DNA of 32,000 nucleotides, taken from the NCBI GenBank assembly GCA_016700015.1, contig CP064995.1, forward strand, positions 480,001 through 512,000, in the 5' to 3' direction. The DNA is from Candidatus Saccharimonadota bacterium (GTDB taxonomy: Bacteria; Patescibacteriota; Saccharimonadia; Saccharimonadales; Saccharimonadaceae). Below the pieces are notes generated by a model, which saw only the letters and a program-made list of their open reading frames with translations, searched no databases and had not been told where the DNA came from. The translations under genes were made by a program, and so were the position numbers. Every line of letters begins with the position of its first letter. Position 1 is the stretch's first letter. This document shows, piece after piece, positions 9,190 to 11,001 of the stretch.

Positions 9190-9226
9190 ACTTATATTCT
9201 GACCAGCCGATAAAGGGGTGAGGGCT

Positions 9227-9391
9227 TTGTTCAAGTCGGATAAAGACAAGGAGCGCGAAGCGCGTGAGCGCGCAGGCGCCAAGACCTGCCCCAAATGTGG
9301 TGGCAGAGGTGGCTTCGGCCCAGGTGGCTGTGGCGCGATAAGCCACGGACACTGCACAGTGTGCAATTGCACCGGCAGGGTCAATAAGTAG
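9227..9391 (+). CDS. 54-aa Cys-rich microprotein with DnaJ-type CxxCxGxG zinc-finger motif
   Basis: Below the ORF-track cutoff, so I translated it by hand: (TTG)FKSDKDKEREARERAGAKTCPKCGGRGGFGPGGCGAISHGHCTVCNCTGRVNK*. SD-like AAAGGGGTGA at 9212-9221. An alternative in-frame GTG lies at 9218. GC-rich. Confidence 0.5.
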   Translation: MFKSDKDKEREARERAGAKTCPKCGGRGGFGPGGCGAISHGHCTVCNCTGRVNK

Positions 9392-9555
9392 ACCTCGCTC
9401 GCTGCCGACGCGGCGGGCATTCGCCCTCAGTTCGGTGTTGGCCCACCATGCTGAGGGCAGAGAGGTGCTCCTTCAAGGAGCTGGCACACTGGGCAGGGGA
9501 TGAGACCTACTGCCGTGGAACTTTGGTGCCGCTTTAGTGAGGTCGAGCTCTCTCC

Positions 9556-9604
9556 GGCCGACAGACGCGCATTCCTCCAGCGCGCCTGTCGGCCTCTTTT
9601 TATT
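9556..9604 (+). terminator. Intrinsic terminator ending the 9161 promoter unit
   Basis: GGCCGACAG (9556-9564) pairs with CTGTCGGCC (9586-9594), with an inner GCGC/GCGC pairing, then TCTTTTTATT. Confidence 0.6.
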
Positions 9605-9612
9605 GGTTGTGC

Positions 9613-9641
9613 TTGCATTACACCACCCCTCATGCTAGGAT
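9613..9641 (+). promoter_or_regulatory. Candidate promoter TTGCAT-17-TAGGAT for the tRNA-like/tRNA-Arg unit
   Basis: TTGCAT 9613-9618, 17-nt spacer, TAGGAT 9636-9641. The -10 is weak. Confidence 0.35.
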
Positions 9642-9694
9642 ACGACAGCGGTCTTGTTCGGTGTGTCTACCAGACAGACAGGCAGGACCGACCA

Positions 9695-9760
9695 GGAGAG
9701 GTAGTTTAACGACTAAGAACGGCGCACCGCGCAAACCCGGGTTTGAATCCCGGCCTCTCC
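9695..9760 (+). ncRNA. tRNA-shaped element 1 (66 nt) lacking an anticodon arm
   Basis: Acceptor GGAGAGG/CCTCTCC. D-like stem GTTT/GAAC. T-arm CCGGG-TTTGAAT-CCCGG. The anticodon arm position holds only a GCGC-ACC-GCGC mini-hairpin. Confidence 0.4.
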
Positions 9761-9764
9761 CCCC

Positions 9765-9837
9765 CGAGCCGTTAGTGTAGCAGGGCATACTCTGGAGAAC
9801 CCCAGAGAAGCGGAGTGTTCGAATCCTCCCGGCTCGA
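9765..9837 (+). ncRNA. tRNA-shaped element 2 (73 nt), non-canonical; possible degenerate tRNA
   Basis: Acceptor CGAGCCG/CGGCTCG plus discriminator A. D-loop with GGG. Anticodon stem CTCTG/CAGAG with an 8-nt loop GAGAACCC (or a 6-nt loop in the other register). The TTCGAAT T-loop sits on a stem that pairs only after a 1-nt register slip (GGAG/CTCC). Confidence 0.4.
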
Positions 9838-9841
9838 CCGC

Positions 9842-9878
9842 GGTCGCACCACTTGACCACCAAATCGGTGGTGCGACC
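9842..9878 (+). other. 11-bp perfect hairpin between tRNA-like element 2 and tRNA-Arg
   Basis: GGTCGCACCAC (9842-9852) pairs with GTGGTGCGACC (9868-9878). The loop is TTGACCACCAAATCG. Confidence 0.4.
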
Positions 9879-9888
9879 CGCAAAACCA

Positions 9889-9960
9889 GCCTCATTAGCT
9901 CAGTGGCAGAGCGCTCACGTTCTAAGTGAGAGGTCACAGGTTCGAACCCTGTATGAGGCT
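9889..9960 (+). tRNA. tRNA-Arg (anticodon TCT)
   Basis: Canonical cloverleaf: GCCTCAT/ATGAGGC acceptor, GCTC-AGTGGCA-GAGC D-arm, CTCAC-GTTCTAA-GTGAG anticodon arm, ACAGG-TTCGAAC-CCTGT T-arm. CCA is not encoded. Confidence 0.9.
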
Positions 9961-9962
9961 CC

Positions 9963-10006
9963 GCTTCTGGCTGTCAGTTTCGACTGATAGCCAGGAGCCG
10001 CTTTTA
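9963..10006 (+). terminator. Intrinsic terminator after tRNA-Arg
   Basis: GCTTCTGGCTGTCAG (9963-9977) pairs with CTGATAGCCAGGAGC (9984-9998), with a few G-U pairs or mismatches, then CGCTTTTAAT. Confidence 0.6.
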
Positions 10007-10026
10007 ATATTCGCTATACTAATTAT

Positions 10027-11001
10027 ATGCAGACCTTTTGGCACAGACTCCCTACACCCTTTTTCATCCTTGCGCCCATGGAGGCGGTGACCGATGTTGT
10101 GTTTCGTCATGTCGTCGCCCAAGCTGGCCGGCCCGACGTCTTTTTCACGGAATTTACCAATGCCACTGGCTGGCACAGGGCGGGTGACAAAGCTATTGGC
10201 GGGCGACTTATCAAAACAAGCGACGAACACCCAATTGTCGCGCAGCTATGGGGGAGCGACCCGGGGGCGATGGCTGCACTTGGCATCCATTGTGCGCACC
10301 TCGGCTATGATGGTATCGACATTAACATGGGCTGCCCCGATCAATCTGCCGTTAAGGCCGGTGGCGGAGCTGGCATGATTCGCACGCCAGAAAAGGCCTA
10401 CGAAATGATTGCAGCAGCCAAACAGTCAGGGCTGCCCGTCAGTGTCAAAACACGGCTTGGCTATAGCAGCGTCGATGAGTGGCGTGATTGGCTCGGTGGC
10501 CTACTCTGCCAAGACATAGCCGTGCTTACTGTACATCTACGCACCAAAAAAGAAATGAGCAAAGTGCCCGCGCATTTTGAACTTATCCCCGAAATTATTG
10601 CTTTGCGCGACAGGCTTGCTCCTCAAACGCTCATCGTGATCAACGGCGACGTCCGCGACCGCAAGCATGGCCTGGAATTTGCAACACAGCATGGCGTCGA
10701 CGGCGTCATGATTGGTCGCGGTGTGTTCGCAAATCCTTTTTGTTTCCAAATGCTACATGGCGATGCAAGCGGCCATGAGCGCAGTGAGCTTATTAGTCTA
10801 CTACTATTTCATCTTGACGAATATGACCGCTATCACGAGCAAACGGGCCGGCCATTCGAAACCCTCAAGCGCTTTTTCAAAATCTATATCCGCGATTTTG
10901 ACGGTGCGAGTGATCTGCGCGACCAACTAATGCATTGTAAAACTACGCAAGACGTTCGTGCTTTACTAGAAAAGATCGATGTAATACTATCACATACGTA
11001 G
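10027..11001 (+). CDS. dus: tRNA-dihydrouridine synthase (Dus family)
   Basis: 324 aa. FILAPMEAVTDVVFR, GYDGIDINMGCP and VSVKTRLG are typical of the Dus TIM barrel. TATACT at 10015-10020 is 6 nt upstream of the ATG. Confidence 0.9.
   Translation: MQTFWHRLPTPFFILAPMEAVTDVVFRHVVAQAGRPDVFFTEFTNATGWHRAGDKAIGGRLIKTSDEHPIVAQLWGSDPGAMAALGIHCAHLGYDGIDINMGCPDQSAVKAGGGAGMIRTPEKAYEMIAAAKQSGLPVSVKTRLGYSSVDEWRDWLGGLLCQDIAVLTVHLRTKKEMSKVPAHFELIPEIIALRDRLAPQTLIVINGDVRDRKHGLEFATQHGVDGVMIGRGVFANPFCFQMLHGDASGHERSELISLLLFHLDEYDRYHEQTGRPFETLKRFFKIYIRDFDGASDLRDQLMHCKTTQDVRALLEKIDVILSHT

Follow-up and report, generated by a model that had tools for sequence, protein, structure and literature searches.

The window considered here is a stretch of 32,000 nucleotides from the genome of a Candidatus Saccharimonadota bacterium (contig CP064995.1 of assembly GCA_016700015.1, forward-strand positions 480,001 to 512,000); coordinates without a locus handle are window coordinates, the parts of the RNA unit, dus and the small open reading frame at 9218–9391 are on the plus strand, and handles of the type L161 denote loci of relatives. 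The window contains the dus gene (10027–11001), encoding tRNA-dihydrouridine synthase (Pfam Dus, 7e-47), and upstream of it an array of tRNA-like elements. By its Dus homologs, the window belongs to Candidatus Saccharibacteria (TM7, Patescibacteria). Positions 9613–10005 form a single promoter-to-terminator unit, in which a leader hairpin is followed by two tRNA-like elements, E1 and E2, a 14-bp hairpin, a tRNA gene and a terminator; the fold of the entire unit has z = −6.3. The location of dus directly downstream, pointed out in an earlier note made from this sequence, turned out to be conserved synteny, seen at more than 170 loci.

E1 (9695–9761) is a 66-nt tRNA-like RNA followed by the discriminator C73. 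Its cloverleaf consists of a 7-bp acceptor stem, the D stem GUUU/GAAC, a 4-nt variable region and the T arm CCGGG-UUUGAAU-CCCGG. The anticodon arm is GCGC-ACC-GCGC, a 4-bp stem with a 3-nt loop, that is, nine anticodon positions are replaced by three. The T loop carries U56, and the D loop lacks GG; U56 together with the loss of G19 is, we infer, what a covarying elbow pair would look like. The earlier note had drawn the acceptor stem, the triloop arm, the GG-less D loop and U56 in the same way. The Rfam tRNA model in sensitive mode gives E1 44.4 bits (gathering score 29, E = 2.7e-8); in the gathering mode E1 is lost at the filters, and only the tRNA at 9889–9960 is reported. A C spacer of 3–4 nt, CCC at 9762–9764 and one C shorter in L161, lies between E1 and E2. 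A cut made at the 5' end of E2 would give E1 the 3' terminus C73-C74-C75, possibly with one more C.

Beyond E1 itself and its copy in L161, the best match of the E1 covariance model is the tRNA-Cys(GCA) of L001 (40.9 bits), which has in common with E1 the GGCG/CGC stem and the CCGGG/CCCGG T arm. Hence E1 looks like a derivative of tRNA-Cys whose 7-nt loop has collapsed to ACC. One further E1-type element was found, at positions 2767–2829 of L001. Compared to E1, it shows changes on both sides in five of seven acceptor pairs, two of five T-stem pairs and one of four D-stem pairs, its stems nonetheless pairing, and the two have in common the C-G-closed ACC triloop, the UUUGAWU T loop with U56, the GG-less D loop and the 4-nt variable region. 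Viral contigs were considered as another source of E1-type elements and rejected: the pattern CACCG-N7-9-GGTTTGAWTCC has at least 120 matches there, and the nine passing the stem filters look like ordinary phage tRNAs.

E2 (9765–9837) is a 73-nt tRNA-like RNA with C1:G72 and A73 and a predicted cloverleaf fold. In place of the anticodon arm it has a 6-bp stem with the 6-nt loop AGAACC or, in the other register, a 5-bp stem with an 8-nt loop. The T stem is formed by 4 bp, a bulged U and 1 bp, and the variable region has 4–5 nt; in the L166 copy the T stem yields a 7/4 acceptor/T geometry. The fold bears out the earlier drawing of E2, including the slipped T stem and the register-dependent loop of eight or six nucleotides, and the CC noted after E2 does not persist, being CU in L161. 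E2 has no Rfam match in either the gathering or the sensitive mode. ARAGORN reports it in the relaxed mode only, as 'tRNA-?' with an abnormal loop. With default settings this program detects in the array only positions 9889–9962, miscalled as tRNA-Pyl(CUA) via a 6-bp anticodon stem with an A.A mismatch. ARAGORN calls neither E1 nor E2 a standard tRNA, and no transfer-messenger RNA (tmRNA) and no Y RNA is reported in these searches.

Evidence for selection comes from the comparison with L161. Genome and metagenome scans for near-identical relatives gave Dus identities of at most 75–76%; only L161 is close, with a Dus 94% identical at the amino-acid level, and the exact Dus protein of the window is not on record. 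The fourfold-degenerate sites of dus are 71.6% identical between the window and L161. At the same time, E1 is identical in 66 positions of 66, E2 in 68 of 73, and the downstream tRNA in 71 of 72. Hence E1 and E2 appear to be under purifying selection. The probability of the 66/66 identity under neutrality is about 3e-10, and on the timescale of the L161 divergence E1 is thus no decaying pseudogene. The changes in E2 are a D-stem G.U pair becoming G-C, T-loop G57 becoming A, one substitution in the variable region and the loop AGAACC becoming CAACC, all of the kind that a structured RNA tolerates. The terminators and the small upstream open reading frame (ORF) cannot be aligned between the two genomes.

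The E2 orthologs have the loops AGAACC, CAACC and UAACC, of 6, 5 and 5 nt (8, 7 and 7 in the other register). U33 is missing in two of the three, the window and L161, whichever register is taken, and position 37 is C. The covariance model of E2 scores 102.9 bits on L161 and 43.7 bits on L166-169; the L166 copy has diverged enough to be missed by blastn. The next matches of the model belong to a widespread family with the acceptor CGGGRYG/CRYCCCG, discriminator A and tRNA-Pro-like D and T arms. E2 aligns with 12 other distinct members of this family, and among the members to which it aligns are some scoring 52–64 bits on the Rfam tRNA model; members are found, among other loci, in L086, L070, L091, L016, L008, L062, L066, L011 and L004.

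In the model-fitted alignment of the 13 distinct sequences, E2 of the window included, standard pairing is observed in 97.5% of cells, with two-sided changes at 13 of the 22 pairs. Covariation extends to all four helices and, within the 'anticodon' stem, to each of the six pairs. None of 500 shuffles reached the observed covariation score, and sliding the partner columns reduces pairing to 30–54%. The loops closed by this stem are unrelated in sequence and length: AGAACC, CAACC, UAACC, CAUGG, AAG, CAAAA, GCAA, CUUGA and a 45-nt insert. Hence what seems to be selected at the 'anticodon' position of E2 is a helix, not an anticodon. Loop remnants resembling tRNA-Pro are present in a few members (UUAGGGA in L062, UAUGGGA in L004). 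The pairs C1:G72 and G2:C71 never vary, 12 of the 13 sequences have A73, and the D arms and the elbow nucleotides are retained. With C1:G72 and A73, E2 belongs to a tRNA-Pro-like family present upstream of dus in many Saccharibacteria, and would descend from that lineage. The comparative alignment proposed earlier as a check on E1 and E2 has thus revealed compensatory changes, in the E2 family as well as in most acceptor pairs between E1 and its counterpart in L001.

To see how general this arrangement is, 166 related loci were examined for tRNA-like elements upstream of dus. With our own scanner, strict in that a match had to be 55–150 nt long and to combine a 7-bp acceptor stem with a 5-bp T stem and an NTNRANN loop, we obtained 117 matches in 162 kb upstream of dus (coding strand) and nine in 1.68 Mb elsewhere; the densities are 0.72 and 0.005 per kb, an enrichment of about 135-fold. 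At least one match is present in 98 of the 166 loci. L001 has six tRNA hits at the Rfam level and two more from the scanner. The elements are 63–141 nt long. A canonical anticodon arm, defined by a 5-bp stem, a 7-nt loop, U33 and R37, was observed in eight of 100 distinct elements, and four of these eight have GCA. Position 74 is C in 97 of the 100 elements (L001–L172 and the window), position 75 is C or U, and a full encoded CCA is uncommon; the constancy of C74 points to a common constraint imposed by 3'-end processing or by RNase P. Short leaders and hairpin tails run right up to the 5' end of the element that follows. E1 and E2 fit this family: they lie on the plus strand in the ~1 kb upstream of dus, keep the acceptor, the T arm and C74, and have a non-canonical helix for the anticodon arm. 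Introns or split tRNAs do not account for the family, since excision of the long interiors gives no 17-nt anticodon arm and the 63–70-nt forms are too short (by inspection).

Alanine identity as a general key to the family was considered and rejected, as G3:U70 occurs in six of 63 acceptor types and in neither E1 nor E2, both of which have A3:U70. The elements with G3:U70, often accompanied by A73, form a subset that includes positions 2757–2825 of L072 (the GGGUGUG...CACAUCC-A group), ~1050–1122 of L297 and 2271–2411 of L001. Their loops are variable and not those of tRNA-Ala: AUUCGAA, AUUCAAA, a UACC tetraloop or a 70-nt extended arm. Alanyl-tRNA synthetase ignores the anticodon, hence these elements could be chargeable.

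A tRNA-Cys(GCA) with U73 and unusual arms recurs at the locus in relatives (L164 ~765–835, L170 ~1258–1325, L172 647–714, L297 ~1140–1215). It has an odd D region and a T arm of the approximate form CUGGU-GUAAU-ACCGG with a 5-nt loop, scores 32.7 bits on the Rfam tRNA model in L172, and is not called by ARAGORN in L164, L170 or L172; it may be the working tRNA-Cys of those genomes. The calls that ARAGORN does make at the dus-upstream locus in relatives are Val(AAC), Phe(AAA), Gly(ACC), Pro(AGG), Ile(AAU), Asp(AUC), SeC(UCA) and '???'.

The interiors of the arrays change faster than their surroundings. In five loci of the Nanosynbacter clade, dus is 92–95% identical, the interiors are 42–54% identical, the leaders are 74–95% identical, and the T arms remain recognisable. 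Among 911 locus pairs with dus at least 88% identical, 631 have interiors less than 60% identical; on the other hand, in 50 pairs with dus less than 78% identical the interiors are at least 80% identical, and a locus whose dus is 71% identical has an interior 83% identical to a Nanosynbacter-type one. The interior alleles do not follow the dus tree. As near-identical dus pairs differ and distant pairs match, the turnover of interiors is replacement by recombination rather than drift. The closely inspected Nanosynbacter-type loci have tRNA-like elements without a canonical tRNA beside them.

In the Nanosynbacter clade, a strongly conserved RNA of ~75 nt is located between the tRNA-like element and the dus terminator (L055 2863–2935, L072 2860–2935, L013 2862–2940). 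Its predicted structure is a four-way junction (GGGCUCGCGAGAUUC...CGAGC-AGAACC-GCUUGAGCCC), and one of its hairpin loops is AGAACC, the same as the loop of E2 in the window. In L021, a locus of this clade, the Rfam search in sensitive mode gives tRNA hits only.

The tRNA at 9889–9960, with the anticodon UCU, has a body of the Cys/Gly type and scores 65.8 bits on the Rfam tRNA model. It had been taken for a textbook tRNA-Arg(UCU), but a textbook case it is not. In bacteria, the arginine identity set consists of A20, C35 and U36 or G36, in most cases with A73 or G73; by established identity rules, the discriminator of Cys and Gly tRNAs is U73. The cloverleaf is standard and C35 and U36 are present, but the discriminator is U73, position 32 is G, and the D loop AGUGGCA puts C, apparently not A, at position 20 (standard numbering). 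Moreover, orthologs with the same body (GCCUCAU...AUGAGGC-U and the same D and T arms) carry other anticodons: GCA in L166 and L293, along with two compensatory changes in the anticodon stem, and GCC with an extra 26-nt arm in L082 and L083. This tRNA either has been re-tasked by anticodon switching or would belong to a set in which decoding does not constrain the anticodon.

Between E2 and this tRNA lies a spacer hairpin (9838–9888), foreseen in the earlier note as an 11-bp stem and in fact of 14 bp at 9840–9881, with the loop UUGACCACCAAAUC and fold z = −5.6. Its tail ends in ACCA, abutting the tRNA at 9889. The hairpin has 85–89% identity to its copies in L161 and L166, where the loop is conserved, and is absent in L082. 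Pairing of the loop with RNA upstream was considered and dismissed: CACCAAA and UUUGGUG could form 7 bp, but in L161 and L166 only 5–6 bp, uncompensated, and the UUUGGUG target is partly inside a predicted stem.

The promoter (9613–9641) is located as previously proposed, with the −35 box TTGCAT at 9613–9618, a 17-nt spacer and the extended −10 box TGC-TAGGAT at 9633–9641 (TAGGAT at 9636–9641). The pattern GCTTGC-17-TGnTAnnnT, read by eye from the sequences, is conserved in L161, L166, L082, L162 and L164, and the promoter word GCTTG is over-represented (z 6.5) in a set of 92 non-redundant regions upstream of dus. The leader hairpin (9649–9690; fold z = −4.1) has been extended relative to the earlier note, with 9649–9658 pairing with 9681–9690 around an inner stem-loop. 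After it, the single-stranded GACCA, reaching to 9694, directly abuts the 5' end of E1, and the junction of CGACCA with the 5' end of an element recurs in L161, L166, L082, L162 and L001. The inner stem is retained in L161, where the loop UACCA is changed to ACACA. The ACC loops that recur in the description given by the earlier note are not a conserved theme: the leader ACC becomes CAC in L161, and in the same 92 regions the words ACCAC, GACCA and CACCA are not enriched (z 0.4–1.8), with CAACG enriched weakly (z 2.7). ACC looks constrained in the E1 type only.

The intrinsic terminator (9963–10005), found by a terminator scan, has a 16-bp stem at 9963–9998 followed by a T run, with fold z −7.7. 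In relatives, a −10-like element (GATAAT, TATAAT or TATACT) is situated 10–15 nt ahead of the dus ATG, just past the terminator; the equivalent region of the window is 10000–10027. Since dus has its own conserved −10, it is a syntenic neighbour outside the RNA unit. Its start in the window and in relatives has no obvious Shine-Dalgarno sequence, which suggests that the dus mRNA may be leaderless or nearly so.

Directly upstream of the tRNA-like operon, positions 9393–9605 are occupied by a conserved structured RNA of ~170 nt with its own terminator. Its sequence identity is 87.5% to L161 and 79% to L166-169, although the preceding ORF is unalignable. RNAalifold yields 69 pairs, 11 of them with compensatory changes; the conserved motifs are GGCACACUGG and CCGUGGAACYUUGGUGCC, and no Rfam family matches. 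The preceding ORF (9218–9391) encodes 57 amino acids and is Cys-rich, of the CxxCxGxG type (...KTCPKCGGRGGFGPGGCG...CTVCNCTGRVNK). In L161 the same position is taken by an unrelated zinc-ribbon ORF, while L056 has the type of the window, and Nanosynbacter loci have one of at least three unrelated small-ORF types just upstream of the array. As unrelated types occupy the same position, the small ORFs swap between near-identical genomes, like the RNA interiors. According to a Pfam scan of 20 proteins, the other window genes are housekeeping ones, such as those for an AddA-like helicase-nuclease, the ATP synthase operon and glycosyltransferases; the scan gave no Ro/Rsr, RtcB, Fem/MprF-type gene or integrase.

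From the comparisons above, we consider E1 and E2 to be probably tRNA-derived functional non-decoding mimics kept by selection. They cannot decode, as the loop of E1 has 3 nt and those of the E2 orthologs have 6, 5 and 5 nt. What both have retained is the acceptor stem, the D arm, the T arm and the elbow nucleotides, and the anticodon arm is preserved only as a helix. RNase P and the tRNA 3'-end and CCA machinery would excise them from the precursor, after which they would fold as L-shaped molecules. One or several tRNA-recognising proteins would then bind them via the half of the molecule formed by the acceptor, T arm and elbow, and they would not act at the ribosomal decoding site. As to their role, which is speculation at this point, they could engage a tRNA-binding factor as its ligand, as a decoy or as a competitor; we lean to a ligand or decoy because the loops of E1 are fully constrained and the interiors are replaced in relatives. 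The swapping of interiors between near-identical genomes hints at a function in recognition or conflict rather than in housekeeping. Among the explanations offered in the earlier note, the best fit is given by tRNA mimics devoid of an anticodon, the elements being conserved, covarying and non-decoding; the analogy with Y RNA and YrlA fails, as there is no Rfam hit and no Ro/Rsr gene in the window, and the acceptor ends are free.

Several observations weigh against this interpretation. E1 is absent from L166, L082 and L162, and the selection on E1 is seen in one close relative, L161, and one distant look-alike. The alignment of the E2 family was fitted to the model, which flatters the pairing, though the margin is large. 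The swapping of interiors was seen in the Nanosynbacter clade and not in the clade of the window itself. In L296, whose Dus is 77% identical, the array is missing, with ~90 nt and two hairpins between the small ORF and dus (1205–1300); hence in some lineages the array is dispensable or has been relocated and, given also the three loci lacking E1, no part of it is essential at this locus. Finally, the window, having housekeeping genes only, offers no candidate for a partner protein.

The alternative that survives best is that the tRNA shapes are mere punctuation, marking RNase P and RNase Z cuts that free and stabilise the hairpin RNAs or the last tRNA, on the model of the t-elements in plant mitochondria. 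Indeed, the elements always occur in a polycistron with hairpins, the hairpin tails stop exactly at the following 5' end, relative to L166 the spacer hairpin is more strongly conserved (85%) than E2 itself, and the loop on the anticodon-arm helix is unconstrained in the E2 family. However, a pure cleavage signal would not need the invariance of all of E1, loops included, relative to L161, nor the D arms and elbow nucleotides retained in the E2 family, and the interiors turn over by replacement, not drift. The specific version in the earlier note, with modules for processing or stability of a tRNA-Arg precursor, is not supported: L166 retains the tRNA without E1, L082 retains it without E1, E2 or the hairpin, and the closely inspected Nanosynbacter-type loci have no canonical tRNA next to their elements. 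We regard punctuation as unlikely, albeit worth keeping in mind.

Another alternative is that the elements carry amino acids for a non-ribosomal reaction, such as aminoacylation of the cell wall or lipids, being charged by a synthetase that ignores the anticodon. The acceptor features of the E2 family (invariant C1:G72 and G2:C71, A73 in 12 of 13) are what one would expect of such carriers, as is the subset with G3:U70 and often A73 elsewhere (the GGGUGUG group, L297), and the lack of an anticodon would keep them off the ribosome. Still, A3:U70 in both E1 and E2, the low frequency of G3:U70 among acceptor types (6/63) and the lack of a Fem, MprF or similar transferase among the window proteins scanned argue otherwise. 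Further, bacterial ProRS and CysRS, the synthetases for proline and cysteine, require the anticodon. This makes carriers improbable.

Slightly less credible still is that E1 and E2 are neutral relics, tRNA genes dying in a tRNA operon of a shrinking genome. Both are clearly tRNA-derived, with degenerate anticodon loops, and their presence is patchy, L166 having no E1 and L296 no array. Thus the earlier suggestion of decayed tRNA genes holds for the origin, from tRNA-Cys and a tRNA-Pro-like molecule, but not for the present status: E1 is 66/66 identical against 72% at neutral sites (chance ~3e-10), double changes preserve the stems across the E2 family, and both the promoter and the 3' flank with C74 have been conserved. 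Genuine decoding tRNAs whose loops are non-standard, including the expanded-anticodon-loop or frameshift-type tRNA once proposed for E2, are very hard to credit: E2 of L166 may be drawn with the 7-nt loop GUAACCC including U33, and Pro-like loops persist in L062 (UUAGGGA) and L004 (UAUGGGA), but neither loop length nor sequence is conserved among the orthologs (6, 5 and 5 nt), the window and L161 lack U33 in either register and have C37, and the loop of E1 is 3 nt long.

The reading of E1 and E2 as non-decoding mimics may be taken one step further, tentatively, and we would not call the result likely. The elements may represent an undescribed class of 'tRNA scaffolds' at the fixed locus upstream of dus, in which a conserved top half (acceptor, T arm and elbow), feeding into tRNA maturation, carries a hypervariable 'anticodon-arm' cassette exchanged by recombination from lineage to lineage, the whole being a strain-specific device for recognition or conflict. 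Such a scaffold could be a decoy for tRNA-targeting toxins or nucleases, or a molecule acting in the relationship between the epibiont and its host. Two members fixed in this lineage would then be E2 and E1, the latter with its constrained ACC triloop.

To our knowledge, only scattered cases of pseudo-tRNAs recruited to other jobs are known. What is new here is a locus-fixed, conserved family of tRNA mimics without an anticodon, spanning a bacterial class and with fast turnover of interiors: a class with tiny genomes keeps under selection a dedicated operon of such shapes. The same locus includes a tRNA gene whose anticodon varies among close relatives (GCA, GCC, UCU). If confirmed, this would be a new conserved family of non-coding RNA in a lineage for which almost no description of RNA biology was found, and a tractable case of reuse of the tRNA body after the loss of decoding. 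It would also mean that automatic tRNA calls in these genomes should be treated with caution, as the annotation is likely polluted by ARAGORN miscalls.

Compared to canonical bacterial tRNAs (RF00005), E1 and many elements of relatives exceed the gathering score, have the 7-bp acceptor, the D and T arms and the discriminator, have C74 encoded after the latter, and reside in an operon of the tRNA type. The differences are that a 7-nt anticodon loop is lacking in E1 and E2, as is U33 (window and L161), that the loops are not conserved among orthologs, and that the T stem of E2 is bulged and Rfam fails to detect this element. The Rfam searches of the window and of the loci searched in relatives gave no family beyond tRNA at the array. 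Like the tRNA-like domain of tmRNA, the elements have a 'top half' made up of acceptor and T arm but no anticodon. Unlike tmRNA, E1 and E2 are only 66–73 nt long and lack G3:U70, a reading frame for a tag peptide and a pseudoknot domain, and ARAGORN finds no tmRNA in the window.

In YrlA RNAs, the acceptor is closed by a loop, the ends form a Ro-binding helix, and the gene adjoins rsr, which encodes a protein of ~500 amino acids. The acceptor ends of E1 and E2, in contrast, are free and form a tRNA acceptor stem, and there is no rsr in the window: no Ro60/Rsr is among the 20 proteins scanned with Pfam, and the remaining ORFs are too small. Rfam models of the Y RNA type give no match up to E = 10 in 9550–10050 and none at the gathering score in the window. 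What likens the elements to YrlA and bacterial Y RNAs is a non-coding tRNA-like domain that lacks an anticodon and is handled by tRNA enzymes (PMC4201824). The t-elements of plant mitochondria (PMC1920247) are likewise tRNA-like structures in polycistronic transcripts, possibly serving as marks for RNase P and RNase Z; they flank organellar mRNAs and are often partial, whereas here we observe complete bacterial cloverleaves with constrained loops.

In the literature searched, we found no paper joining Saccharibacteria or Patescibacteria with tRNA-like RNAs and no prior description of such an array. The nearest precedents are the polycistrons of irregular tRNAs and tRNAOther. Mukai et al. (2017) described allo-tRNAs and also polycistrons made up of irregular tRNAs bearing diverse anticodons, some of them apparently unused in translation and proposed to be regulatory or linked to toxin-antitoxin systems (PMC5389517). 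The clusters of odd tRNA-shaped genes are alike in the two cases. However, allo-tRNAs have 8/4 or 9/3 acceptor/T stems, a long variable arm and a 7-nt loop, while E1 is 7/5 with a 3-nt loop and E2 is 7/(4+1) with no variable arm. As the defining features of YrlA, tmRNA and allo-tRNA were looked for and are lacking in E1 and E2, they belong to none of these classes. In Bacillus cereus, tRNAOther is a pseudo-tRNA reused inside a regulatory RNA (PMC3399842): a retained tRNA-derived gene outside translation, expressed in a longer transcript and having a cellular effect. It is one gene at the flank of a genomic island, in one Bacillus group, whereas the elements upstream of dus form an array that has a promoter of its own and is conserved across a Patescibacteria class, those of the window type showing covarying helices and those of relatives having swapped interiors.

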